In this document: one piece after another, positions 1-59,869 of the stretch
Numbering within the stretch: position 1 is the first letter of the stretch
Layout: each line of letters opens with the position of its first letter
Origin: Pirellulales bacterium
Lineage (GTDB): Bacteria > Planctomycetota > Planctomycetia > Pirellulales > JADZDJ01
NCBI GenBank assembly: GCA_035656635.1
Contig: DASRSD010000110.1
Coordinates: 686-64,685 of the forward strand
Reading direction: 5' to 3'
DNA: 64,000 nt
Position numbers and translations under genes: made by a program
The notes under the pieces: model-generated
Databases searched by the model: none
Seen by the model: the letters and a program-made list of their open reading frames with translations, nothing else
Told to the model about the DNA's origin: nothing

Positions 1-75
1 TTCACCGCAGGCAAAGACTTGGACCGCTTTGTGGTGTGGGATTACCTGAACCGCCGCCGCTCCATCGTAGCGTGA
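1..75 (+). CDS. 3' end of a CDS cut by the window edge, product unknown
   Basis: Frame 1 is open from base 1 to TGA at 73-75 (FTAGKDLDRFVVWDYLNRRRSIVA*). Too short to assign. Confidence 0.25.
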   Translation, partial: FTAGKDLDRFVVWDYLNRRRSIVA

Positions 76-81
76 CTGGAC

Positions 82-276
82 TCATTTGTCTGCAGTTGGT
101 GTCGGTGGTGCATCTTCGACAACCTTGAATCCCTCAGGAACTTCGAGCCTAAACAAGCTTGGATCGAAAGGCTTGTTCCAGACGAAGTTTTCGACAATTA
201 GGCGTTCCAAAGTGCGTGGCTCGGTCATAAGCATAGTCGATTGCAGCAACCGTTTTCTTACAAGTCGGAGATTCAA
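82..276 (-). CDS. small hypothetical protein
   Basis: 64-aa ORF starting 9 nt after the stop of the upstream minus-strand gene. No recognisable motif. Confidence 0.4.
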   Translation of the reverse strand: MNLRLVRKRLLQSTMLMTEPRTLERLIVENFVWNKPFDPSLFRLEVPEGFKVVEDAPPTPTADK

Positions 277-285
277 CCGCCAAAC

Positions 286-822
286 TCAATCGTGCTGGTA
301 ATTCATCACCAGCCAGTGGGTACCTTGTTTTTGAAGCTTCACTGCCAAATGCGATACGTACTTAAATGGGTAGGGAGACCCGCGGTCAGAGAATAGGCCC
401 GTAGCGAAGGCGCGAAACTCGGCGGTTGCAGTCATGGGGTTTGTAGTGCGATCCAGTTTGACTTCCATGCCGCTAATGCTGACCGAGTCGAATTTGGCCT
501 GCGCGATCCAATGGCGGGCTTCCGTTTTGACTTCTGTTGCCATGGGCGAGATGCACGCGAGGCACGCATCGAAATCGTTTCGCTCTGCGGCGTCGGCAGC
601 GTTGTAAATTACGTTTGCCACTTGTTCGCGTTCCGTCACAACCAAATGGTCAATCAACATGGCCGAGCCCATTACTAGCGCGATGCCAGCCATGGCCACC
701 AGAATGCCAGCGCGACCATATTTTAGAAACAGCACGCCCAGCACGAACAAGATCACTCCGCCGCCGATAAGAATCGGCGTGGGGTCTTCCGTGAACCAAG
801 TGATGAGCGCGGAATCCGCCAT
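286..822 (-). CDS. hypothetical membrane protein
   Basis: 178 aa. The N-terminal third has two hydrophobic helices (ILIGGGVILFVLGVLFL, ILVAMAGIALVMGSAML), followed by a soluble domain. Confidence 0.6.
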   Translation of the reverse strand: MADSALITWFTEDPTPILIGGGVILFVLGVLFLKYGRAGILVAMAGIALVMGSAMLIDHLVVTEREQVANVIYNAADAAERNDFDACLACISPMATEVKTEARHWIAQAKFDSVSISGMEVKLDRTTNPMTATAEFRAFATGLFSDRGSPYPFKYVSHLAVKLQKQGTHWLVMNYQHD

Positions 823-894
823 GGCTAACTAGGAAAAACGACTACGGCAGTTAAAAGCAGCGTGAATAATACTTTGGCATTTGCATTGCGTACT

Positions 895-2907
895 TCAATG
901 GGACATCAGCCAGTTCTCAATTTGCTGTACTAATATCGTGTTTCCCTGCGATCGGGCTAACTCTAGTGCCCTTTGGGCAGCGGCAGAGACTTCGGCAGTT
1001 TGGCCAAGTTGACTATATACTACTGCCAGACTGTAATAGCTCTGCGCGTAAGAGGGCTTTTGGGCGATGAGTAGTTGGTAATTATCGATGGCTTCCTGGG
1101 TGCGGCCGATTTCAACCAGCGCTATTGCTAGATTGAAGCGCGCGGCGAACAAGGTTGTGCTGTCCGAGGAAAGTGTTAGGACCTGCTCGTATTGTTGAAT
1201 CGCTTCCGAAACTTGCCCTACTTTCTTCAGCGCAATTCCCAAATTGGCGTGAGCCTCGGCCGAATTTGAGTGCTGTTGTACTACTTGCCGAAGGGTGTCA
1301 ACGGCGTCTTGTGAGTGACCGGTTTTGATTTGAGCCATACCTAAGTTGATACCGGCTTCCATATAATCTGGTTTCAATTGCAAAGCTTGTTCAAGCGGCT
1401 CGATTGCCTCTGATGGTTGCCCAGCATCGATCAAGGCGCTGGCTAAATTGTTGTACGCGCTGGCATAAACCGGTTTTATCACAATGGCTTGTCGGAAGTC
1501 GTTGATCGCTTCCTGAATATTACCTTGTTGTTGTAGTTTTACGCCCAAATTGTTATAGGCCACCCAGCATCTTGAATTTTTGTCGATTGTAGTTTGGTAG
1601 AGTTCGATGCAACTACCAAATGTACGGCTTTGCTGCCAGGCGAGGTATCCGAACATTCCGGCGACGAATGCGGCGGCGGAAATTGCCACCCACCTCAGCG
1701 TTTGGTGCGCCCGTTGATACCAACGGCTCCAAAAAGCAGCTGCCAGCGTCATGACGGCAATCAGCGCTAAATACTGATAGTGATCGGCCACTAATGAGTA
1801 TTGCATGTAGCTGACATCGACAAAGCCCATTACGGGAAGCAAAGCCACACAGAAGAATGCCCAAGCGAACAGTAGGGGCTTTCCCCACGAATGATTGCGC
1901 TGCCAGACCAGCATCCCGGTCAATGCTGCCACGGCGATCAACGGGAGCCACCAATAAAATTTTTCGATTTGGATGTTCCACTGCGGATACACGAAAATTA
2001 GGTTAGTGGGCAGAACTGCCTTGAACAAATAGAACCATATCACCGCGCCAGCGCCGGCTAAGCGCTCGGCAAAGCCGGCCGGACGATAAATTTCTCCCGA
2101 ACCGTGTGTTTGGAACCATAGGTTCACCGCAATAAGCAGCATGGCTGACAGGAAGAAAGGCGCTGTGCGGATGATGTCCCACCTTGTAATCGCTTGCCGT
2201 TGCCACCAAGCGATCAACAATAGCACGAGCGGCAGCACTGCTACGGAACCTTTGCTAAGCATCGCCAGAATAAATGCCAGCCAACTAAAACAGTACCAAT
2301 GCAATTTCCTAGATACGAAGAGACGAATTAGCGACTTGCGCGGACCTGGTTCGGAAGCGGCGAGTGCGGGAGAGCAATCGATTTGCAAATATGCGAAAAT
2401 TGACAGCAGAAAAAATAACATAGCCAGCGCATTTTTTCGTTGCGCAATCCAAGCTATGGATTCGACATTGACAGGATGCACTGCAAACAACAAGGCTGCG
2501 AGCCACGCCCCCGGAATGGACAACTTCCGCAAGATAGCCCAAAGCAGGAGCACTGAAGCAATATGCAGCACCAAATTGGTGACATGGTAGCCGGCCGAAT
2601 TCATTCCCCACAATCGCCACTCCAGCCAGAACGTGGAATTAGTTAAGGGCCAATAATCGGTTGGTTCCGTTGTACACCAAAAACGATACAATCCGTCCGC
2701 GCTTTTAACGATTGGGTTATGTGTCACGAGCAGAGCGTCATCCATAACAAATTCACCATGGAGCGCAGGCCAATAAATCAAAATGGTGCTGAAAATGATG
2801 ATCGCCGTGCCGCACAAAATTTGTATTACTGATTTCCGATTTCGTGACATTGAAATTTCACGCGGTGATCCAACAGGAGCGTAAGATTTATTTGCCGCCT
2901 GGGTCAT
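895..2907 (-). CDS. multi-pass membrane protein with C-terminal TPR repeats (TMTC/PMT-like glycosyltransferase architecture)
   Basis: 670 aa with about 10 hydrophobic segments. It has an N-terminal FVMDDALLVTHNPIV motif and a C-terminal run of about 34-aa repeats with the A..Y/A..P pattern typical of TPR. Confidence 0.8.
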   Translation of the reverse strand: MTQAANKSYAPVGSPREISMSRNRKSVIQILCGTAIIIFSTILIYWPALHGEFVMDDALLVTHNPIVKSADGLYRFWCTTEPTDYWPLTNSTFWLEWRLWGMNSAGYHVTNLVLHIASVLLLWAILRKLSIPGAWLAALLFAVHPVNVESIAWIAQRKNALAMLFFLLSIFAYLQIDCSPALAASEPGPRKSLIRLFVSRKLHWYCFSWLAFILAMLSKGSVAVLPLVLLLIAWWQRQAITRWDIIRTAPFFLSAMLLIAVNLWFQTHGSGEIYRPAGFAERLAGAGAVIWFYLFKAVLPTNLIFVYPQWNIQIEKFYWWLPLIAVAALTGMLVWQRNHSWGKPLLFAWAFFCVALLPVMGFVDVSYMQYSLVADHYQYLALIAVMTLAAAFWSRWYQRAHQTLRWVAISAAAFVAGMFGYLAWQQSRTFGSCIELYQTTIDKNSRCWVAYNNLGVKLQQQGNIQEAINDFRQAIVIKPVYASAYNNLASALIDAGQPSEAIEPLEQALQLKPDYMEAGINLGMAQIKTGHSQDAVDTLRQVVQQHSNSAEAHANLGIALKKVGQVSEAIQQYEQVLTLSSDSTTLFAARFNLAIALVEIGRTQEAIDNYQLLIAQKPSYAQSYYSLAVVYSQLGQTAEVSAAAQRALELARSQGNTILVQQIENWLMSH

Positions 2908-3197
2908 GAAACGGTCATCTTTTGGAAGTTCCTACACATATTGAACGGAACAGCACCGACTACTGATGTTGCAAACAGGAGTTACACATCGTGGTCAGCT
3001 CTTACGCACAAGCCGCTGATGCAAGATAGAAACCTGCTTTACATTGTCAGCAGCCATTTGGTCGATACAAGCTAGATACAAATCCAAAAGCAGTGCTATC
3101 GTATCGGCATCAACCAGAATTATTCGACGCAAACACGTACTTTTTAGATATCATGCAGTCGGAGTTTTTATAAGCATTAACTATTGACGGCCTAGAA

Positions 3198-3581
3198 TTA
3201 CTTGCCAACGTTAAGCCTAAGTAAGTGATTTAATCGTCGGCGGTGAAAACGCAGCACGTTGAACATGGCAACTATGGCGATGGCGGCCAGCACAAATGCA
3301 ATCGGCGTGAGGGTGAAAATGGGTTGCCAGGGGGGCGCAGAGTTTTGTTGGTTTGCCGGAGCATCGGTGGCGGTCGGCGCGGCATCGCCAGAGGCGGCGT
3401 CGATGGCCTCCCGTCCCAGGCCGCGCTCTCGGGCGTGAAATTTTTCTTCGATCGATGCCTCGCGGCGCTCAAATTTTGGTCCAATCGTAAATAGCGCCGC
3501 CAGACCCGCCAGTGAAAACAACATGACCCAGAACCACGGGGAATCGGTCACCGAGGGCAGTGTTTTTTCAGAATCCGACAT
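3198..3581 (-). CDS. hypothetical two-helix membrane protein
   Basis: 127 aa, 13 nt downstream of eno on the same strand. TM helices sit at both ends (WFWVMLFSLAGLAALF; IAFVLAAIAIVAMF). Confidence 0.6.
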   Translation of the reverse strand: MSDSEKTLPSVTDSPWFWVMLFSLAGLAALFTIGPKFERREASIEEKFHARERGLGREAIDAASGDAAPTATDAPANQQNSAPPWQPIFTLTPIAFVLAAIAIVAMFNVLRFHRRRLNHLLRLNVGK

Positions 3582-3593
3582 GACAAGCGGCGT

Positions 3594-4892
<1,299 letters not shown>

Positions 4893-5699
4893 TCAAAATT
4901 CAAAATGGATATTGTCAATTTTGTCCGGAATTTTTTTTCTGCGGACAAAACGCAGCGGAGTTTCAATTAATCACGGGAAAAACGCCCTCTGGCAATTAAG
5001 TATTGGCAAAAATGGAACGATTGTCGGTTCATTTTTCGTACAGGCAGTGTTTGTTCGATCCGGTAAGTTTGGCTGAGCGTCCGCGCGGACCAGCGGTCTG
5101 AAAAACGGCAGCCGCCGCCGTGCGCGCTCACGAGTGCCAGTATAATTTTTAGGCACAGCCGGCATTATACTGAAAATGCGTACACTTCTCCACTGAAAAT
5201 TGGGCCAGCCTTTGCTCGCTTGATAAATGTAGTGGCGGCTGTCCCAAGCCGCCCCTGTTGCAGGGAAAGACGGCTGGGCACAGCCATCGCTCCATCGGCC
5301 TCCATTGTGCAAAATTCGCCGCCGATTGGCTAGCGGGCTACCGGCCTAAGGAACTAAGCTGGCGTGCGGAAAAATTGCTATGATTAGCCAGCGGCTGACC
5401 GATGGTCCAATGCTTCAAATAAATTCGATCCGGACACTGCGTAAGGCACTGGTTGTCCATTACTATCTAGAATTTCAACAATACAGTCAGTAGATATTCT
5501 GTTTCATCTATTCCGTTCATCTTCCGCGATGAACGCGCCCATCAGCGGCCTTCTCAGACGATGCCGGCCAGCAGTGACACCCGAGCGAACCATCGCCCGT
5601 AGGCAATTCTTAGAATTGCGCAAATACTCGGCCGACTGATGCGTTCATTGCTGTGTCAGGAAGAAGATAATAGAATGGGCACCCAATGGAGATTTTACT

Positions 5700-6593
5700 A
5701 TGCGACGTGCGGTAACCATCGTTGAATTGCTCGTGGTGATTGCCATTATTGGCGTGCTGGTTGCGTTGCTGTTGCCTGCGGTTCAATCGGCCAGAGATTC
5801 ATCTCGCCGCTTGCAATGTGCGAGTAACTTAAAACAGATTGGCTTGGCACTGTTGAATTACGAAACGGCCAACAAGCATTTTCCGCCTGGTTACGTTTCG
5901 AGCTATGACAACGAGGGAAACGATACCGGGCCGGGTTGGGGATGGTGTTCGTTCATCTTGCCGCAAATGGAAGAAAACGCCATCTATCAAACCATCCATT
6001 TTGATTTGCCGATTGAAAACCCGAACAATGCCGCCCGGGTGGCGAATATCAAAAGCTTTTTTTGCCCCACCGACGATACGCCCAGGGTGTGGGCCGCGAA
6101 GAGCCGTGATGCCAGCGGCAATCCGATTGCCACGGTTTGCGAAGTCGCGGCAGCCAACTATGTTGCCATGTATGGCACGACCGAGCCGGGTGTAGACGGC
6201 GACGGCATGTACTTTCGTAACAGCAAGTTATCGTTGAAAGACGTGACCGATGGGAGCAGCAAAACCGTTGCTGCCGGCGAACGGGCCCACCAACTGGGCA
6301 ACGCCACGTGGGTCGGTTCGGTTACGGGAACGAGTTTATTTCCCGACAATGGCGAAGTGGCGCGTCCGGAAACGGAAGCCAGTGCCGGAATGGTATTAGG
6401 ACAGGCTGGGGAAGGCGTTGGCCCCGGCGCGCCGGGAAGCGATGTCAATCAGTTTTATAGTCTGCACGCGGCCGGTGCGAATTTTGTGTTTGTCGACGCG
6501 CATGTTAATTTTCTTCCCGCTTCGATGGATGAAAAAATATTCAAAGCGCTGACCACACGAGCCGGCGGCGAAATCATTTCGGTCAATTACTGA
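5700..6593 (+). CDS. DUF1559 protein with prepilin-type N-terminal cleavage/methylation segment
   Basis: N-terminus MRRAVTIVELLVVIAIIGVLVALLLPAVQSAR, followed by the RRLQCASNLKQIGLAL..Y....FPPG pattern typical of planctomycete DUF1559 proteins. Confidence 0.9.
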   Translation: MRRAVTIVELLVVIAIIGVLVALLLPAVQSARDSSRRLQCASNLKQIGLALLNYETANKHFPPGYVSSYDNEGNDTGPGWGWCSFILPQMEENAIYQTIHFDLPIENPNNAARVANIKSFFCPTDDTPRVWAAKSRDASGNPIATVCEVAAANYVAMYGTTEPGVDGDGMYFRNSKLSLKDVTDGSSKTVAAGERAHQLGNATWVGSVTGTSLFPDNGEVARPETEASAGMVLGQAGEGVGPGAPGSDVNQFYSLHAAGANFVFVDAHVNFLPASMDEKIFKALTTRAGGEIISVNY

Positions 6594-6853
6594 TGCGTAA
6601 AATTCTGCTGCTGATGTTGTTGGCCCTGGCGGGTTGTAAGGATGCGGACGATAGTGTCCCGCGTGTTATGCTGTCCATCGACAAAGTTCCGCCCAGTGAG
6701 CTGAAGACGGCCAAAGCCAAGTTCCCAGATGTGAAATTCGACACCGCTTGGAAGCTCGCCAGCGGCGCCATTGAGGTCCGGGGAAAGAATAAATTCGGCA
6801 AAATTCATGAAGTCGAATTTTCTCCCACGGGTGATATCGTGGAAACAAACTGA
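6593..6853 (+). CDS. small lipoprotein (PepSY-like fold suspected)
   Basis: Lipobox MRKILLLMLLALAGC. The start overlaps the upstream stop (ATGA-type coupling). 86 aa. Confidence 0.6.
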   Translation: MRKILLLMLLALAGCKDADDSVPRVMLSIDKVPPSELKTAKAKFPDVKFDTAWKLASGAIEVRGKNKFGKIHEVEFSPTGDIVETN

Positions 6854-6959
6854 GCTCCTGCTAGTGGTGCGGTTTGCCTTTGGGCGGCAAATGGTTACGA
6901 TGGTCGATGCGGAATTATCGGAAATGCACGCATCGAAACTGACAGCCGGGTTGAACTGA

Positions 6960-7943
6960 ATGTCTGTAGCGCCCATCGCCCATCCGCGGATGCCAGCGGA
7001 GCCCTTGCCGGAAAATATTCGCAGCACGCAGCCGGGGGGTGGGTTTTGTTATTCGCTGGAAATGGCCTGGGGTCGCTGGCGGCGCTGGTATTTGCGAACT
7101 TTTTGGCCGGGATATGTGCGGCGAATGGCGGCCGCGCGAATTGGTGAGCCCGCCGGCTGCCCACACGAGATTGTCGATTCGCGCGATCTGAAATTCTGCC
7201 GCAATTTGACGGATTGCCATTGGCGGCCGGAGGATGATCGGTTTCGCTGGCGCGAAAAAATTCCGCTGGCACGCTGGGGACTGGCCGAAGTGCAAATCAT
7301 GGGCTGGCCCCTCCTGGCGCTGACCGTGGCCTTGGTGGTGGGCTGGAGAAATACATCGGGAACCACGAGCGCGCTGTGCTTGTTGGCGGCGGTGGTTAGC
7401 GGGGCGGTGCTGGTGCTGGTTGTGTCGTTCTTTCGCGATCCGCCGCGGCGCATTCCGCAAGAGCCAGGCCTGCTGGTTTCCCCGGCTGATGGTAATGTGG
7501 TGGAAGTGGCGCAGCTGGCACACGATGAATTTGTCGGAGGGCCGGCGGTGCGGATCGCTATTTTTCTCACGCTGTTCAACGTTCACGTGAATCGCATGCC
7601 GTGCCGGGCCAAGGCGATTCGATTAAAGTATTCGCCCGGCAAGTTTTTGCACGCCGATCATCCGCTGGCCAGCACGCAAAACGAAAGCATGTGGATTGGC
7701 CTGGAGCAGGACGAAGCACCCTATCGCCGCCTGGTATGCCGGCAGGTTTCCGGGATGGTGGCCCGCCGCATTGTGAACGATTTAAGGCCGGGAGAGGTGT
7801 TGGAACGGGGCGCGAAATTTGGGATGATTAAGTTTGGCTCGCGAACCGAGTTGATTGTGCCGGCCGAAGGTTTCGAGCCGCAAGTTCGCTTGGGACAATG
7901 GATCAAAGCCGGCCGTGACGTGGTCGGGAAATACAGCAGCTAG
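6960..7943 (+). CDS. psd: phosphatidylserine decarboxylase family proenzyme with a long N-terminal extension
   Basis: The C-terminal half has the FGMIKFGSRTELIVP self-cleavage (G-S) region and TM helices. It lies directly upstream of pssA. The start is uncertain (about 110 extra N-terminal residues). Confidence 0.85.
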   Translation: MSVAPIAHPRMPAEPLPENIRSTQPGGGFCYSLEMAWGRWRRWYLRTFWPGYVRRMAAARIGEPAGCPHEIVDSRDLKFCRNLTDCHWRPEDDRFRWREKIPLARWGLAEVQIMGWPLLALTVALVVGWRNTSGTTSALCLLAAVVSGAVLVLVVSFFRDPPRRIPQEPGLLVSPADGNVVEVAQLAHDEFVGGPAVRIAIFLTLFNVHVNRMPCRAKAIRLKYSPGKFLHADHPLASTQNESMWIGLEQDEAPYRRLVCRQVSGMVARRIVNDLRPGEVLERGAKFGMIKFGSRTELIVPAEGFEPQVRLGQWIKAGRDVVGKYSS

Positions 7944-10608: not shown

Positions 10609-10615
10609 ATTTCAG

Positions 10616-10794
10616 ACCGTGCCGCGCGTATCATTCCCGATGGCTGGGGTAGTGACGCATTTTGAAGTGAACTGCATTGGGTGGCCGGGGTCGAGTGCCG
10701 CCGAGCCCCCGGAATGCTGCCCGCTGGGGTCTCCCTTCGGTCGACCCCAGCCACCCTGCCGGACTGCGCCGCGCGTATCATTCCCGCCGGCTGG
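10616..10794. repeat. 78-bp GC-rich nested palindromic element (10679-10756) flanked by 32-bp direct repeats (10616-10647, 10763-10794)
   Basis: Termini GGGTGGCCGGGGTCGA...TCGACCCCAGCCACCC with an inner GAGCCCCC...GGGGTCTC. The flanking 32-mers match at 28/32. Related copies lie at 23754-23830 and 39219-39296. Confidence 0.85.
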
Positions 10795-33444: not shown

Positions 33445-35265
33445 ATGCTTAACACCCAACTTAAAGAGTTTGTCACCCGCTTCATTTTGCCGCGGGTAAT
33501 ACAGCCAGCGCAATACGTGGGGGGCGAGCTGAACATGGTTCGCAAAGACCATCGCAGCGTGCGCGGCAAACTGTGCATTGCCTTTCCCGATTTGTACACC
33601 ATCGGCATGAGCCATCACGGCCTGCAAGTGTTGTACACGCAGATGAACAGCCGGGACGATTGGGCCTGCGAACGGGCTTTTACGCCAGCCTTGGACATGG
33701 AGGCGCAGCTCCGCCAGCACGACAAACCGCTGTACAGCCTGGAAACGTTCACGCCGCTGTCGCAGTTCGATGTGCTGGGCTTCACGCTGCAATACGAAAT
33801 CTGCACCAGCAATCTGCTGACGATGCTCGATTTGGGAGGCATTCCGCTGCATAGCACGGAGCGTACGCTAAGCCATCCGTTGGTCATTGCCGGCGGACCC
33901 TGTGCGCAAAATCCGGAGCCGCTGGCGCCCTTTATCGATTTATTCGTCACCGGCGACGGCGAGCCCAGCCTGCCGCTCATTTGCGACGAGTGGCTCAACT
34001 ATAAAGCCGCGACCGCTGCTCGCGCTGATGCAACGATTGATTCTCGCGAATCCGTCCTCGCCCAGCTCGCTGCCAAGTTTCCCTTCGTGTACGTTCCAAG
34101 GTTTTATGAGCCGGAATACTTTGCCAATGGGCGCATCGCCGCCATCAACCGCACCCGCAGCGACGTGCCGGAAACGATCGAGCCCTCGGTCATTAGCGAC
34201 CTGGACGCCATGCCGCTCCCCACGGCTCCCATTTTGCCGTATGTGGAATGCGTGCACGACCGCATCGCCATCGAAATTATGCGCGGCTGCCCGTGGCAGT
34301 GCCGGTTTTGCCAAAGCACGGTCATCAAGCGGCCGCTGCGCATTCGGGAAGTGGAAACCATCGTGCAGGGAGCATTGGAATCGTACTACCGCACGGGCCA
34401 TAACGAAGTTTCGCTCCTCTCGCTTTCGACCAGCGATTATCCCTACTTCGAGCCACTGGTGCGGCGAATGAAAGAAGTGTTTGGCCCCTTGGGTGTGAGC
34501 ATTGCCTTCCCTAGCTTGCGCGTGAACGAGGCGCTGAAAGTCGTGGCTTCGCTCATCGGCACGGAGCGGCATTCCGGCATGACGTTGGCGCCGGAAGTGG
34601 CCCGGGATGACATGCGCGAGCAAATTCGCAAAAAAATCAGCAATCAAGATTTGTTCGACGGTTGCCGCGAGGCGTTCAAAAACGGCATCGACAAAGTCAA
34701 GCTGTACTTCATGTGCGGTTTGCCCGGCGAGCGCGAAGTCGATTTGAACGGCATTGTCGAGATGGCGGAAACCATTGCCGAAATTGGTCGGGAAGTTCGC
34801 GGCCGCTACGCCAAGGTGACGGCCAGCGTGTCGAACTTCGTCCCCAAGCCGCACACGCCGTATCAATGGAACGCCATGCAGCGGCGCGAGTATTTTCATT
34901 GGGCCCATCAGTATCTCAAGCGGCGCGTAAAAATTCGGGCCGTGCAAGTGAAGTGCCATCACGTGGAAACGAGTTTGCTCGAAGGATTATTGAGCCGCGG
35001 CGATCGGCGCGTGGCCCAGGTGGTGGAACTCGCCTGGCAGCGCGGGGCCCGGCTGGATAGTTGGAGCGAGCATTTGAATCCGCAACTGTGGTGGCAAACG
35101 CTGGCCGATTGCGGGCTGAATTTCGACGAGCTTGTTCATCGCCCGGCCGAAATTGGCGACCGCCTGCCGTGGGACCACATCAACGTGAAAAAGGGCCGCA
35201 CCTATCTGGAAAAAGAGCACGACCGCAGCGTGATCCAACTGGCGGCCATGGCGAATGCCGAGTGA
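33445..35265 (+). CDS. B12-binding-domain radical SAM protein (TIGR03960-like)
   Basis: RGCPWQCRFCQ CxxxCxxC cluster motif, an N-terminal ILPRV..PAQYVGGELN, and 606 aa. Confidence 0.88.
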   Translation: MLNTQLKEFVTRFILPRVIQPAQYVGGELNMVRKDHRSVRGKLCIAFPDLYTIGMSHHGLQVLYTQMNSRDDWACERAFTPALDMEAQLRQHDKPLYSLETFTPLSQFDVLGFTLQYEICTSNLLTMLDLGGIPLHSTERTLSHPLVIAGGPCAQNPEPLAPFIDLFVTGDGEPSLPLICDEWLNYKAATAARADATIDSRESVLAQLAAKFPFVYVPRFYEPEYFANGRIAAINRTRSDVPETIEPSVISDLDAMPLPTAPILPYVECVHDRIAIEIMRGCPWQCRFCQSTVIKRPLRIREVETIVQGALESYYRTGHNEVSLLSLSTSDYPYFEPLVRRMKEVFGPLGVSIAFPSLRVNEALKVVASLIGTERHSGMTLAPEVARDDMREQIRKKISNQDLFDGCREAFKNGIDKVKLYFMCGLPGEREVDLNGIVEMAETIAEIGREVRGRYAKVTASVSNFVPKPHTPYQWNAMQRREYFHWAHQYLKRRVKIRAVQVKCHHVETSLLEGLLSRGDRRVAQVVELAWQRGARLDSWSEHLNPQLWWQTLADCGLNFDELVHRPAEIGDRLPWDHINVKKGRTYLEKEHDRSVIQLAAMANAE

Positions 35266-35276
35266 ATCCAATTCTG

Positions 35277-36122
35277 ATGTCGCGCTTCAAACTTCTGGCC
35301 TTGGATATCGACGGCACGTTGGTCAATAGCCGCGATGAACTAACGCCGGCTACCAGCGCCGCCATTCGCAGGGCTTGCGAGGCGGGCATTCGCGTGGTGC
35401 TGGCCACCGGGCGGCGGTATTCTAAAGCGCTGCATTTGGTGGAACCGTTGAAGCTGGATGTGCCGCTGATTTCCGCCAGCGGCGCGATCATTAAAGATCC
35501 GCTCGACCATCGCACGCTGTTTTGCGCCGAGTTTTTGCCCGGCGTGCTGGAAGAGGTATTGTCGATGGTCGCGGCCGCCGGTCACGATGCGGTGCTGTAT
35601 GCCGATACGTTTTCCGAGGGCTTCGATTTTTATTGCCCGCGGCTGGACGTGAACGGCACGAATCAAACTGATTTGGCCGAATACTTCGCTCGCAACGTGG
35701 GTTGCGGCCGCCAGTGGCCGAATTTAATGCGTGCGCCGCCGCCGGGAATTTTCGCCGGGTTTGCCATGGCGGCTCGTCCCACGATGGCAGCATTGGGCCA
35801 GCGGCTGGTTCAAAAATTCGGCGCTGATTTGTACGTTCACATTTTGAAGAGCCCATTTTATACGGGCTGGTTTTGTGAAATTGAGCCTGGAGGCGTGAGC
35901 AAATGGTCGGCCGTGCAGCATTTAGCGCGCGATTGGGGAATTGGCGATGAAGAAATTTGCGCCGTCGGCGATGACGTGAACGATATTCCCATGGTCCGTG
36001 GCGCCGGCTTGGGCGTGGCGATGGGAAACGCCGTGGCCGAGCTAAAAGCCGCTGCCGACCGTGTCGCCCCCTGCCACGACAGCGACGGCCTGGTCGAAGT
36101 GGTCCGCTGGCTGCTGGATTGA
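35277..36122 (+). CDS. Cof-type HAD-IIB phosphatase
   Basis: LLALDIDGTLV motif I and GDDVNDIPM motif IV. The start was trimmed to the ATG at 35277. Confidence 0.88.
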   Translation: MSRFKLLALDIDGTLVNSRDELTPATSAAIRRACEAGIRVVLATGRRYSKALHLVEPLKLDVPLISASGAIIKDPLDHRTLFCAEFLPGVLEEVLSMVAAAGHDAVLYADTFSEGFDFYCPRLDVNGTNQTDLAEYFARNVGCGRQWPNLMRAPPPGIFAGFAMAARPTMAALGQRLVQKFGADLYVHILKSPFYTGWFCEIEPGGVSKWSAVQHLARDWGIGDEEICAVGDDVNDIPMVRGAGLGVAMGNAVAELKAAADRVAPCHDSDGLVEVVRWLLD

Positions 36123-36228
36123 GCGAGCACCAGTCGGGCGTTTACTGCTGGCAGCCTAAGATCACGTATAATTGATTGGCCGGCCAGGCGTTTATCCAAT
36201 GTCCAGCCTGTAACAGAGAACCACTTGC

Positions 36229-36711
36229 ATGATTAAGCCTCTAGTCTATGTCGAAACCACCATTCCAAGTTTCTACTGCGAGACTCGGACTTCGGCAGAT
36301 GTCGTGGCTCGAATGCAATGGACACAACAATGGTGGAAAACGGCTGCCGATCGTTTTGAGCTGTGCTCGAGTGCAGCCGTGTTAGATGAGTTAGGTGGCG
36401 GAGAGCTACCGGAACGCAATGCGCTGCGACTGAACTTGATGAAGCACGTGCCCCTCGTACCCATTACTGATGCCATCGGTGAGATTGTACAAGCTTACTT
36501 GCATCATCATCTGATGCCGACGGACCCTGCTGGCGATGCACTGCATTTGGCGTTAGCGTCGTATCATCGGTGCGATTTTTTGGTTACTTGGAATTGCCGG
36601 CATTTAGCAAACGCAAATAAATTCGGACATATTCGTCGGGTCAATACGATACTCGGTTTGTGGATCCCCGCGATTGTGACACCGCTTGAACTTCTGGAGA
36701 ACGAACCATGA
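36229..36711 (+). CDS. PIN-like domain protein (putative toxin)
   Basis: 160 aa. VYVETTIPSF at the N-terminus and DALHLALASYHRCDFLVTWNCRHL resemble PIN strands 1 and 4, but with E for D and WN for D. Confidence 0.5.
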   Translation: MIKPLVYVETTIPSFYCETRTSADVVARMQWTQQWWKTAADRFELCSSAAVLDELGGGELPERNALRLNLMKHVPLVPITDAIGEIVQAYLHHHLMPTDPAGDALHLALASYHRCDFLVTWNCRHLANANKFGHIRRVNTILGLWIPAIVTPLELLENEP

Positions 36712-36884
36712 AAGACGATCCGGTCATTGACGAAATTCGAGAAGTGCGACGAAGAATATCCGCGCAATTCGATCATGATCCGGCTCGATTGGTAGCCTAC
36801 TATCAACAGCTACAAGAGCAACATCGAGATCGGCTAATGAAAACGGACCCCACATCGGACAGACCTCCAGCCATAGTGCAATAA
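36708..36884 (+). CDS. 58-aa partner protein (putative antitoxin), not in the ORF track
   Basis: The ATG at 36708 overlaps the upstream stop (ATGA). Translation: MKDDPVIDEIREVRRRISAQFDHDPARLVAYYQQLQEQHRDRLMKTDPTSDRPPAIVQ*. Confidence 0.45.
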   Translation: MKDDPVIDEIREVRRRISAQFDHDPARLVAYYQQLQEQHRDRLMKTDPTSDRPPAIVQ

Positions 36885-36893
36885 ATCGGCTCA

Positions 36894-36965
36894 GCTGCCG
36901 ACCGTGTGGCCCCCTGCCACGACAGCGACGGATTGGTGGAAGTGGTAAGTTGGCTGCTGGATTGA
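36894..36965 (+). repeat. orphan copy of the last 23 codons plus stop of the Cof hydrolase gene
   Basis: Encodes AADRVAPCHDSDGLVEVVSWLLD*, against ...VVRWLLD* in the live gene. There are 7 nt differences, and 5 of the 6 changed codons are synonymous. Confidence 0.9.
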
Positions 36966-37000
36966 TGATTCAGGCGATTTGATAGGGTCGCGCACTGCGG

Positions 37001-37165
37001 CTAGCCATTGGGCTTAAACCAAGAGATGGCCAGCAAGACTAATCCGGCAAGTCCGAGCAGCACGCCAATCAGCGAAAGAGCATCGGAATTCCGCGGCGCG
37101 ACCGTTCCGGCAATTAAAAGCTGTGCACCGGCCAAAACCAAGATGGAAGCCGCGATTGCTTTCAT
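37001..37165 (-). CDS. possible 54-aa two-helix membrane peptide (not in the ORF track)
   Basis: MKAIAASILVLAGAQLLIAGTVAPRNSDALSLIGVLLGLAGLVLLAISWFKPNG*. The only evidence is the hydrophobic pattern and the intact ORF. Confidence 0.3.
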   Translation of the reverse strand: MKAIAASILVLAGAQLLIAGTVAPRNSDALSLIGVLLGLAGLVLLAISWFKPNG

Positions 37166-37423
37166 TTGTAGCCCCAAGTGTTTGTGTTAGGTGATGTACA
37201 GTTGAAGGAACATTTTTCGCAGTCGACCCATACCTCCAGAGCTTTGCAATCTGTTGTATGGATGCTTGACAAGAAGTCGTTCCTATTGTAGCGGCCGAGG
37301 AAGGGACCAAACACTGAAATTTACTAACCGAATACTAACTTTCACCTCGTATATTTGCCAAACGGTATTCTTCCAAAATTGCCAAATCAATCATTTGTTT
37401 CTTTCTGCGAGGATTTCGTCCCC

Positions 37424-38230
37424 ATGCTTCACCAAAGCCGCACGTCTGGCATAACTTTCCACTTGCGTTTGTTGGCGGTGCTGTTCGTCGTGGCAGCGGC
37501 ATCCCCCAGTTTTGCCCAAGACCATTACCTTCCTGCGGGCAAGCCCGATGTGCTGACGCTGTTGCCGCCGCCGCCGGCTGCCGATTCGCCGGAGCAGGCT
37601 GCCGACCTGGCGGAAACCGTCGCCGCCCATAAAACTATCACGGCGGAAGAAAAAGCTAAAGCCGAGGCCGAAGAAAAGAAATTCAGCGTGGCCAGTTTTG
37701 CGTCGACCATTGGCCCGGCATTTCAGCTCAACAAGCTTCCGAAAACGGCAGCTTTTTTTGAACACGTGCAAAAAGAGACCGAGGAAGTAATCGACGTGGG
37801 CAAAAATCATTGGCAGCGGCCGCGGCCGTATCAAGTCGATCCGACCGATTTGCATCACGGCGAAAAAAATCCGAGTTTCGGCTATCCTAGCGGACATTCC
37901 ACGCAAGCCACGGTGCTGGCGGCGCTGCTGGCCGAAGCAATTCCCGATAAACGCGACGCCATTTTGGCCGAAGGCCGCCAAGTGGGCTGGGATCGCGTGA
38001 TGTTGGGACGCCATTACGAAACCGATATTTACGCCGGCCGGGTATTGGGCCAAGCGATTGTCCGCCAATTGCACGAAAGCCCCGCCTTCGAGCACGATTT
38101 TGCCGAAGTGAAAGCGGAGGTTGCGAAGAACTTGGCGATAGCGGCCACAACCACCTCGGCGATGCCGCCGCATGCTGCCATGACAATGCCCTCCGGCTCG
38201 CCAACCGTGCCACTAACACCTGCCCAATGA
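37424..38230 (+). CDS. PAP2-family (class A-like) acid phosphatase, secreted
   Basis: Signal peptide ending SFAQD. Motifs KNHWQRPRP, YPSGHS and GRHYETDIYAG match the K-x6-RP / PSGH / R-x5-H-x3-D signature. Confidence 0.8.
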   Translation: MLHQSRTSGITFHLRLLAVLFVVAAASPSFAQDHYLPAGKPDVLTLLPPPPAADSPEQAADLAETVAAHKTITAEEKAKAEAEEKKFSVASFASTIGPAFQLNKLPKTAAFFEHVQKETEEVIDVGKNHWQRPRPYQVDPTDLHHGEKNPSFGYPSGHSTQATVLAALLAEAIPDKRDAILAEGRQVGWDRVMLGRHYETDIYAGRVLGQAIVRQLHESPAFEHDFAEVKAEVAKNLAIAATTTSAMPPHAAMTMPSGSPTVPLTPAQ

Positions 38231-58415: not shown

Positions 58416-58485
58416 TCACGTCACCAAATCTCTTCCTGACCAGCATAAACACGTCTTCCAGCGTCGGGTCTTTGTCGTTGAAGTA
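58416..58485 (-). repeat. oldest orphan copy (A) of the ABC ATPase gene 3' end
   Basis: Its minus-strand translation retains FNDKDPTLEDVFMLV. A 1-nt indel and further divergence follow. Confidence 0.8.
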
Positions 58486-58581
58486 GAATCGACAGGACGG
58501 AGCGTTATGAAGTATGATTGATGAAACTGCTCTGCTGGCTAAAACCCAAGAACGTTGATTGTTTCAAAGTAGGATTGCCCC

Positions 58582-58866
58582 ATGTCGACAGGCCGATCGA
58601 AAAACACAAAGACTGCGTCGGAATTCCAACGGCAGCCGATGGAAGTAGTCAAGCAGGTGCGGAAAACTAAGCAGCCTGTGACCATCACGGTGCAGGGCAA
58701 GCCGGGAGTGGTAGTCGTCGATGCCGCTACTTACCAGCGACGCATCAAAGCAGCCAATCTGGCAAATCTGTTGGAAGGAGGAGAACAAGACGTGCGGGCT
58801 GGACGATTGCGATCAGCCGATCAAGTGCTGAAAGAACTTGGCCGTGCCAAAAAAACATCGCGTTGA
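58582..58866 (+). CDS. Phd/YefM-family antitoxin
   Basis: FQRQPMEVVKQVRKTKQPVTITVQGKPGVVVVDAATYQRR fits the Phd/YefM N-terminal fold pattern. It overlaps the toxin start. Confidence 0.65.
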   Translation: MSTGRSKNTKTASEFQRQPMEVVKQVRKTKQPVTITVQGKPGVVVVDAATYQRRIKAANLANLLEGGEQDVRAGRLRSADQVLKELGRAKKTSR

Positions 58867-59171
58867 AATTACGGCGGCGGCGGAGCGCGATCTGCGTGAA
58901 ATCCGCGATTACATTGCTCTTGATAAACCGGCGGCGGCGCAGCAATGGGTGAAGCGAATTGCGAAACAAATTCGCAGCCTGAAAGCTAATGCCGCTGCGG
59001 CACGAGGTCATTCCGGAAGCGCGGGAAATCGGCGTCGAATATCGACACACGCTTTCAGGGCCCTATCGGACGATCTACCGGGTAGAGAAAGAGCGAGTGA
59101 TTGTTGTGCGTGTGATTCACGGAGCACGCTTGCTGGATCCATCTTTTTTGCCTGGTTCGGAAAAAGCCTGA
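58838..59171 (+). pseudogene. RelE/ParE-family toxin, frameshifted
   Basis: The N-terminal half (VEITAAAERDLREIRDYIALDKPAAAQQWVKRIAKQIRSLKA) is in one frame. The C-terminal half (PLRHEVIPEAREIGVEYRHTLSGPYRTIYRVEKERVIVVRVIHGARLLD) is in another. The junction is near 58985. Confidence 0.7.
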
Positions 59172-59223
59172 AGCAGATACGCTCCTCTTCGAGTCGCGGC
59201 TAAATGGCGATGCCATCCGGAGC

Positions 59224-59330
59224 GCGACCAACGGTCGCGGCTTTGTGGATTACGACACCAAGCCCTTCGTCACCAGCATAAACACGTCTTCTAGCGTGGG
59301 GTCTTTATCGTTGAAGCTGCGGACGCCGAC
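59224..59330 (-). repeat. orphan copy (B) of the ABC ATPase gene 3' end plus downstream hairpin
   Basis: 107 nt, about 92 percent identical to 59887-59992. Translates as VGVRSFNDKDPTLEDVFMLVTKGLVS*. Confidence 0.92.
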
Positions 59331-59414
59331 ATCTCATTTGAGCATTATTCTCTTGCCGCAAGCTCGTTGGCGAAAGATAATGCAATCATTGATGTTGAAC
59401 TCTCGGAGGTGGCC

Positions 59415-59612
59415 ATGAGCCTGGACGAATTGGAAAATGCTGTTACTCATCTGCCTGCCGAAGAACTGTCGGCCTTTGCGCAATGGTTTGAAGAATTTAT
59501 GGCCGATGCTTGGGATCGCCGCATCGAAGCGGACATTAAAGTCGGACGGCTCGACGAGGCTGGCCGGCGGGCGGATGCTGACTTTGAAGCGGGGCGCTTC
59601 AAGCCGCTATGA
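59415..59612 (+). CDS. putative addiction-module antitoxin
   Basis: MSLDELENAVTHLPAEELSAFAQWFEEF...WDRRIEADIKVGRLDEAGRRA. The stop overlaps the toxin start (ATGA). Confidence 0.55.
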   Translation: MSLDELENAVTHLPAEELSAFAQWFEEFMADAWDRRIEADIKVGRLDEAGRRADADFEAGRFKPL

Positions 59613-59869
59613 GCCATTTTGCGACGTCGGAATTCTGGCTTTGCTACCGGCAACTGCCGGAAAATGTGCGGGAACTGGCTGATAAAAACTTTGCCCTTTT
59701 GCAAGAAGACCCAAAGCATCCATCGTTGCGGCTCAAAAAAATCGGATCGTTTTGGTCGGTTCGAGTTGGTTTACGTTACCGAGCGCTCGCCCGCGATCGT
59801 ACCGAAGGATTCGTTTGGTTTTGGATTGGGCACCACCGTGAATACGATCGGTTCCTCAAGGGAAAGTGA
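59609..59869 (+). CDS. RelE/ParE-superfamily toxin
   Basis: 86 aa. WSVRVGLRYRALARDR...FVWFWIGHHREYDRFL matches the RelE-like beta-sheet core pattern. Confidence 0.65.
   Translation: MSHFATSEFWLCYRQLPENVRELADKNFALLQEDPKHPSLRLKKIGSFWSVRVGLRYRALARDRTEGFVWFWIGHHREYDRFLKGK

Follow-up and report, generated by a model that had tools for sequence, protein, structure and literature searches.

A PIN-gene cassette between allele-like copies of a hydrolase gene end in a Pirellulales genome

We describe a 771-bp cassette that stands directly behind the stop codon of a Cof-type HAD-IIB hydrolase gene (the HAD gene) in a 64,000-nucleotide (nt) stretch of DNA from a Pirellulales bacterium (contig DASRSD010000110.1), the whole of which we refer to as the window. 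As the initial annotation of this DNA had proposed, the cassette has been inserted and is bracketed by two copies of a gene end; the corresponding site is empty in the nearest relatives. By their pattern of codon changes, the two flanking copies of the gene end differ as alleles do, and not as a gene differs from a decaying duplicate of itself. On balance, we think it probable that the locus arose by a homology-anchored insertion, in which a gene end together with the cassette came from a related lineage and one of the two alleles was displaced.

The duplicated HAD gene end

A repeat search of the window recovers the final 23 codons and TGA of the HAD gene again on the far side of the cassette, with 65 of 72 nt (90%) identical and the similarity ending precisely at TGA, left and right alike (Table 1). 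The longest identical block between the two copies is 23 nt. Six codons differ, five of them silently (GTC/GTG, GGC/GGA, CTG/TTG, GTC/GTG, and GTC/GTA), and the sixth (CGC/AGT) exchanges Arg for Ser. The initial annotation had read the repeat, its end at the stop codon, and the codon changes correctly, along with the content of the intervening 771 bp, which hold only a PIN-like gene and an overlapping 58-aa open reading frame (ORF). The 64-kb window has just four repeat families of 30 nt or more whose copies lie within 5 kb of each other, including this one and another, also noted before, which consists of three copies of the end of an ABC transporter ATPase gene and is unrelated to the HAD repeat.

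We collected orthologous HAD loci from genomes and metagenomes; HAD orthologues in Pirellulales metagenome-assembled genomes show 76–87% aa identity. Judged by neighboring genes, the closest relative of the window is L161/L162 (97.6% aa identity in a radical-SAM C-terminal region, 87% in PAP2, and 86% in HAD), followed by L164. In L161/L162, L164–L166, L168, and L169, a single HAD end is followed by the PAP2 gene ∼75–170 nt on, with no cassette and no orphan gene end, and L001 is also without the cassette. A more distant Pirellulales genome, L004 (HAD 80% aa identity, PAP2 54%), shares this arrangement of cassette and orphan; there, a 470-kb contig carries the HAD end (6768–6838), a PIN homologue of 80% aa identity, a homologue of its partner ORF, and an orphan end (7556–7626) that starts at most 1 nt from the position of the orphan start in the window. 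In L167 (HAD 84% aa identity), the HAD end (966–1031) is followed by a low-GC 202-aa lipoprotein-like ORF without a Pfam match and then by an orphan HAD end (1723–1787) that begins 6 nt further in and has a 1-nt deletion. Because both L004 and L167 are occupied, the latter by a lipoprotein-like gene, the HAD site has been used repeatedly, and it can take up cargo other than a toxin–antitoxin pair. The orphan starts in the window, L004, and L167 all fall within 7 nt of one another, with two different cargos. A fixed crossover position would give this pattern, but so could common descent or a hotspot of (GCC)n microhomology.

Several further features of this site and of its assemblies can be recorded here. 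The gene-linked copy in L004 has lost its stop codon (6838–6873; GAT TCC for GAT TAG), and the HAD protein there gains 11 residues from the left flank of the cassette; the L004 orphan retains TAG. The DNA just past the HAD stop differs among relatives, comprising a methyltransferase gene in L001 (6851–7621), the lipoprotein-like gene in L167 (1050–1658), and a low-GC segment in L002 (876–1320), where the stop codon is lost, so that the HAD/PAP2 junction is a general hotspot of variation. In the window, the spacer between orphan and PAP2 (36966–37354) measures ∼390 nt, compared with the ∼75–170 nt between HAD stop and PAP2 in relatives with an empty site, and it holds a 54-aa hydrophobic ORF (37001–37165, minus strand), called as a gene by the Joint Genome Institute (JGI) and absent in relatives; this spacer may be a further small insertion. 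A Logan contig from SRR11835640 (locus L172) equals window positions 35819–36893 at 100% and stops at 36893, the last cassette base before the orphan. That end may reflect structural heterogeneity at the cassette/orphan junction or mere low coverage; we consider heterogeneity because the 23-nt longest exact match is probably too short to break an assembly graph. Elsewhere in the window, a 33-nt direct repeat (10615–10647 and 10762–10794) has copies 147 nt apart with 88% identity.

The orphan in the window contains no stop or frameshift before its terminal TGA and translates to AADRVAPCHDSDGLVEVVSWLLD, identical to the C-terminus of the functional orthologues P0138 and P0145, and at the variable position Arg, Ser, and Gly are all natural in orthologues. 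Summed over six pairs of gene end and orphan (the ABC, L118, and L086 pairs are introduced below), 33 of 47 changed codons are silent and 14 non-silent, with silent to non-silent counts of 5:1 for HAD in the window, 6:1 for ABC c3/c2 (TGA>TAA included), 4:2 for ABC c3/c1, 3:2 for L004, 8:5 for L118, and 7:3 for L086. Neutral decay of a local duplicate, with the gene copy under selection, would give an expected silent fraction of at most ∼0.44, and the observed excess has P≤3e-4. In addition, intergenic DNA cannot be aligned between the window and even its closest relative L161, while orphan and gene-linked copy agree at 90% of positions, which argues that the orphan is young or has been refreshed. 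It matches its own partner at 62/69 positions, L164 at 60/69, and L168 at 58/69, and it differs from the L167 orphan at 5 of the shared 63 nt. The initial annotation had suggested aligning the orphan to Cof orthologues to identify a donor lineage; the signal in 63–69 nt is too small to name one. Sliding-window identity revealed no recombination breakpoint within the HAD or ABC genes.

The array behind the ABC gene

The ABC transporter gene anchors a sister locus, in which a gene-linked end (c3) is followed by cassette A, an orphan end (c2), cassette B, and a more decayed orphan (c1), as listed in Table 1. Copies c3 and c2 begin at the same base. In the sister lineage L176/L177, which comes from the same metagenome sample as L162 and has an ABC protein of 93% aa identity, the gene ends with TAA and a hairpin and leads straight into an intact Phd/ParE pair; L176 has an intact ParE homologue of 108 aa and neither cassette A nor an orphan. 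Window positions 59330..58562, covering c2, its hairpin, and cassette B, are colinear with L176 4850..5617 (85.8% over 769 nt), and over the 35 nt past the stop c2 and L176 show 2 differences. The sole residue change in c2, T>S at its final position, ranks second in frequency among natural alleles (28/120 orthologues). Since c2 and cassette B are colinear with the L176 gene end and its downstream cassette, the orphan c2 is the native ABC gene end, and the stop and hairpin of the working gene came in with cassette A.

Decay rises with distance from the ABC gene. The ParE toxin of cassette B is spread over two plus-strand stretches (58838–59203 and 58989–59171) that match Pfam model positions 1–63 and 56–88 in different frames and reads as a frameshifted pseudogene, and c1 carries an indel. 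This gradient indicates that arrays grow next to the gene. In the relative L179, no toxin–antitoxin pair follows the ABC gene.

Table 1. Positions in the window of the features at the HAD and ABC-gene loci
Feature	Position	Strand	Remarks
Cof-type HAD-IIB hydrolase gene	35277..36122	+	Intact, 281 aa; Pfam Hydrolase_3 E=3e-45
Left repeat copy	36051..36122	+	Final 23 codons + TGA of working HAD gene
Inserted cassette	36123..36893	+	771 bp; only PIN-like gene + overlapping 58-aa ORF
TATAAT box	36167..36172	+	Upstream of PIN gene; read from sequence
PIN-like (VapC-family) gene	36229..36711	+	160 aa; Pfam PIN E=2.8e-4
58-aa partner ORF	36708..36884	+	Overlaps PIN stop by ATGA; tblastn homologues at other PIN loci
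Right repeat copy	36894..36965	+	Orphan HAD gene end, 23 codons + TGA; encodes ...VVSWLLD, then stop
Copy c1	58416..58497	−	Distal orphan, most decayed; 68–88% identity, one indel
Cassette B	58498..59220	+	Phd/YefM antitoxin 58582–58866 + ParE toxin split over two frames; Pfam PF02604, PF05016
Copy c2	59221..59330	−	Orphan; TAA stop + hairpin
Cassette A	59331..59883	+	Gene-proximal; 81-aa ORF 59367–59612 + ParE-like toxin 59609–59869, both intact; Pfam ParE_like E=7e-8
Copy c3	59884..59992	−	Gene-linked; final 26 codons, TGA, terminator-like hairpin gcgaccgttggtcgc
ABC transporter ATPase gene	59912..60841	−	Anchor of sister locus; Pfam ABC_tran, DrrA1-3_C

Cargo and recurrence of the PIN cassette family

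The GC content of the HAD cassette is ∼0.50, compared with ∼0.60 in its flanks, and the 771-bp insert contains no integrase, transposase, or phage genes and no conserved end sequences. Taken alone, the Pfam PIN match of the 160-aa protein is weak (21.9 bits, below the 23.6 cut-off). The protein has >6,500 homologues at ∼70% identity across Acidobacteria, Gemmatimonadota, and Planctomycetes, many of which carry PF01850 and the NCBI name VapC family; a sequence search returned no solved structure. The 58-aa protein, without a match in Pfam, NCBIfam, or the Protein Data Bank (PDB), is presumed to be the antitoxin, and a homologue of it lies alongside the PIN gene in 75/80 metagenomic PIN loci and in L004 (tblastn). 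This order, with the toxin first and the partner downstream, differs from canonical VapBC, in which the antitoxin stands upstream and has a recognizable DNA-binding domain. We found no PIN homologues on IMG/VR viral contigs, and a plasmid search gave nothing beyond 28–35% identity.

The TATAAT box lies ∼57 nt before the PIN start, and L004 shares the motif ACG..TATAATTG ahead of its PIN homologue. We infer that the box is a promoter; a consensus scan called no full sigma-70 promoter there. A GGTATCNT-like motif is conserved ∼7–12 nt before the ATG of many PIN homologues (L083, L098, L126, L130, L132, L147, and L148), which suggests a −10 box with leaderless transcripts. We also considered whether the orphan and the 58-aa ORF might be translated as one fused product and rejected this: the two share a frame in the window (36708 and 36894) and are 13 nt out of register in L004, so the shared frame is a matter of chance.

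Bracketing direct repeats recur in the PIN cassette family, being present at 16 of the 71 metagenomic PIN loci with sufficient flank and at 0–1 of mismatched controls; some of the 16 are near-duplicates, leaving ∼13 distinct contexts. The repeats span 19–387 nt with 74–97% identity, and their sequences are mutually unrelated. Eleven inserts inspected closely, the window and L004 included, measure 707–871 bp (mostly ∼710–780 bp) and share no conserved terminal sequence. In L118, a convergent UbiA-family gene contributes its 3′ end as the repeat, the edge of which falls at the stop; the repeat is an acyltransferase gene 3′ end plus 12 nt past the stop in L147; the 5′ end and upstream region of an enolase-superfamily gene in L086/L090; and a short hairpin in L126. 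Because the contexts of L118, L147, and L086/L090 differ in this way, the rule is a conserved stretch adjoining the cassette, with one intact gene copy retained, and not gene 3′ ends as such. The repeats of L145 and L083 end in TGA/TAA, possibly gene stops, and are not counted here.

The flanking repeat of L098 occurs in at least four copies (1190–1254, 1712–1841, 2488–2626, and 3334–3476) whose ends are inverted (GCCTAAC...GTTAGGC), and it looks like a dispersed element of the repetitive extragenic palindromic (REP) type, not a gene end. Within 945 kb of related DNA, further repeat pairs (L015, L036, L053, and L054) were set aside as internal protein repeats or REP-like elements and not gene-end duplications.

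Origin of the structure and comparison with known systems

In the homology-anchored insertion that we regard as probable, DNA of a related Pirellulales lineage, carrying that lineage's own HAD 3′ end followed by the PIN/58-aa cassette, would have entered the cell and recombined with the resident HAD gene through conserved coding sequence, presumably in a RecA-dependent manner. The favored route would be a Campbell-type single crossover of a circularized fragment of gene end plus cassette, and a close alternative would pair homologous exchange on one side with illegitimate joining at the distal end. Either route would leave an intact gene with one allele, then the cassette, and then the other allele stranded as an orphan. 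In Escherichia coli, incoming DNA with a lacZ-end fragment integrated by single crossover of a circular molecule in 56/60 cases, duplicating 109–950 bp of the gene end, and true homology-facilitated illegitimate recombination usually gave deletions of about 1 kb (PMC3240628). The edge of similarity would fall where conservation between the lineages ends, at the stop codon or, if donor and recipient are close, at the terminator; an edge at the stop would be sharp because, between genes, even the closest relatives cannot be aligned. The cassette adds no mobility function, and its presumed toxin and labile antidote would penalize loss via repeat recombination. Since such loss would release the toxin, these unstable structures may persist mainly around toxin–antitoxin cargo. 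Repeated rounds would stack new cassettes beside the gene and push older ones outward, as at the ABC locus.

Of the two mechanisms that the initial annotation had favored, homology-driven capture gains from the allele-like copies, their natural variants, and the native orphan at the ABC locus, while generic reading of gene ends is unneeded. A gene-end reader is also at odds with the L086 repeat, which is a 5′ end plus upstream DNA, with the L147 and ABC repeats, which run 12–35 nt past the stop, and with the short hairpin of L126.

Several points weigh against homology-anchored insertion. We did not observe the primary placement of the cassette behind the HAD stop, and we know of no natural competence or other DNA uptake route in these uncultured bacteria. 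The window and L004 junctions agree to 1 nt, yet their PIN genes are 80% identical, a divergence about that of the hosts, which therefore leaves room for long vertical persistence with repeated precise loss. Over 63 nt, the gene-linked copy has 6 differences from L161 and the orphan 13, at variance with the polarity at the ABC locus, and the 19–21-nt repeats of L132 and L134 are too short for efficient RecA recombination. The silent bias might also reflect a subsequent swap of the gene copy for the allele of another strain; under either origin, the codon pattern implies homologous exchange with a diverged lineage.

A bolder version, which we offer tentatively as a possibility of the second rank, is an integrase-free cassette system, in which circles would loop out via the flanking repeats and re-enter orthologous gene ends by means of host RecA, building arrays. 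Conserved coding sequence would then serve as the address, and arrays would grow beside the gene as in integrons. Crossing over with functional alleles would keep refreshing the carried gene end, giving intact orphans and a junction shared by the window and L004 despite patchy distribution, and toxin–antitoxin cargo would be enriched by penalizing excision.

The repeats might instead be the attL and attR sites of integrase-less elements resembling cis-mobilizable elements (CIMEs), moved by a tyrosine recombinase acting in trans at a gene 3′ end, with each element bringing a replacement gene end and tandem accretion yielding arrays. This architecture is what gene-restoring islands integrated at gene 3′ ends usually show, in three genomes carrying two kinds of cargo the orphans begin within 7 nt of the same position, and c3 and c2 share their start base in a three-copy array that resembles accretion. 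We nevertheless find site-specific integration unlikely, given that no integrase is encoded in or adjoining the cassettes or in the other window region inspected (1–6200), that the HAD and ABC repeats are unrelated, that one PIN cassette family is bracketed by >10 unrelated repeats of 19–387 nt without conserved termini, and that the longest identical HAD block is only 23 nt. The single-strand folding of the repeats is ordinary (z-scores −0.13, −1.0, and +0.28), and positions 35000–38000 give no Rfam match; for want of excess folding and of such a match, an attC-like or other structured recombination site was rejected. A single recombinase with a fixed core, against which the initial annotation had argued, is unlikely in view of the many unrelated repeats, the lack of conserved termini, and the lack of attC-like folding. 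True insertion with long target duplication, by staggered breaks or replicative template switching, would make both copies native and their differences later; it deserves about as little credence. It has a precedent in restriction–modification complexes, with variable repeats of 30–420 bp, some over gene 3′ ends (PMC2853133), and would suit both a discrete cassette of ∼710–780 bp at many unrelated targets and the very short repeats of L132 and L134. Against it stand the silent excess (33/47, P≤3e-4), the identity of the non-silent differences with natural alleles, the sharp repeat edge at the stop codon, and the ABC locus, where the working gene has a stop and hairpin other than the native pair kept in the orphan.

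An old insertion predating the split of window and L004, with gene conversion keeping the copies alike and precise losses elsewhere via the repeats, appears a little less likely again. The common cassette/orphan junction, a PIN divergence (80% aa) near that of the hosts, and lineage-specific sites shared by copies within a genome (5 vs. 1 in the window/L004 alignment) speak for it; it needs at least three or four independent precise losses, the closest relative included, leaves the silent bias and the intact frame of the orphan unexplained by gene conversion, and says nothing on how the structure formed. A chimeric join of two strains is conceivable in principle, given that the source is a metagenome-assembled genome and that the Logan contig ends exactly at 36893. 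A JGI contig, possibly from the same reads as the window assembly, matches the window at 100% over 6.8 kb spanning the HAD structure, and because L004, on its 470-kb contig, and L167 have the same architecture, such an artefact is very unlikely. A diversity-generating retroelement was discarded, the insert containing no reverse transcriptase gene and the differing orphan bases (G, A, T, G, A, A, and T) not being adenine-specific, as was homing by the PIN nuclease, since the architecture also occurs with ParE-type and lipoprotein-like cargo and homing would make no duplication.

The movement of chromosomal toxin–antitoxin and restriction–modification modules that lack mobility genes has stood as a puzzle since insertion with long target duplication was described in 2000. 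The allele-like copies and the native displaced copy at one locus point to plain homologous recombination with DNA of related lineages and not to a dedicated enzyme, and if this reading is true it could explain the spread of such cassettes without a mobility enzyme of their own. It predicts RecA-dependent integration, dependence of integration on repeat length, and allele-like divergence present already at insertion. Our results suggest that conserved gene ends are landing pads where accessory cassettes accumulate, which is relevant to annotation (orphan gene fragments and altered C-termini, as in L004) and to the turnover of defense and addiction genes in uncultured phyla.

Comparable architectures are known from several systems. 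Like integron cassettes, the present ones are small, often encode toxin–antitoxin pairs, and are arrayed, each followed by a repeat and the newest nearest the insertion point; unlike them, they have no attC-like structure and no integrase nearby, and their repeats are copies of the end of the adjacent gene. They differ from site-specific and CIME elements in that one PIN family is found with unrelated repeats in at least 10 contexts, and not with one att sequence. In Rhs, contact-dependent inhibition (CDI), and type VI secretion effector–immunity loci, C-termini are displaced into orphan arrays (Jackson et al. 2009; Kirchberger et al. 2017, PMC5361080). As there, displaced 3′ ends line up behind a conserved gene body, with the newest closest to it (three copies at the ABC locus), and the mechanism proposed for Rhs/CDI likewise combines a homologous anchor with an illegitimate join (PMC5361080). 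The displaced Rhs/CDI ends are different toxin tips with immunity genes, whereas here they are near-identical alleles of a housekeeping gene end and the cargo is free-standing. The lacZ single-crossover integrations resemble our loci in that a gene-end duplication flanks inserted DNA with one gene copy intact (PMC3240628), but they came from a laboratory construct delivered by conjugation, whereas no natural circle of the present cassette was observed.

The nearest toxin–antitoxin report that we found is from Microcystis aeruginosa, where a ParE/ParD module downstream of the MaOC1 orthocaspase gene is flanked by direct repeats (PMC7935541). It too is a chromosomal toxin–antitoxin pair just past a gene and fenced by direct repeats; in contrast to those described here, its repeats are identical, 152 bp long, and start 14 bp past the stop, outside the gene, and no empty-site or allele analysis was reported (PMC7935541). 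Our literature search found no paper on toxin–antitoxin cassettes flanked by allelic housekeeping gene ends, or on arrays of them.

Among known phenomena, insertion with long target duplication, described in 2000 for restriction–modification complexes (Nobusato et al. 2000 Gene 259:99; Furuta, Abe & Kobayashi 2010, PMC2853133), comes closest; the present insertions work in the manner of that family without being strict members of it. They differ from it in that the cargo is a toxin–antitoxin pair, or a lipoprotein-like gene in L167, that the copies differ as alleles of different lineages instead of both deriving from the recipient's target, and that at the ABC locus it is the native end that has been displaced; the double-strand-break role suggested for restriction enzymes cannot hold in general for the cassettes here. 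The HAD locus has repeats >30 bp, a relative with an empty site, and an insert of <20 kb without integrase, transposase, or phage genes. In common with the restriction–modification insertions, our cassettes carry an addiction-type pair without a mobility gene, have long direct repeats of variable length and an insert of deviant GC content, and are flanked by a repeat that is single-copy in the empty-site relative and in some cases overlaps the 3′ end of a gene.

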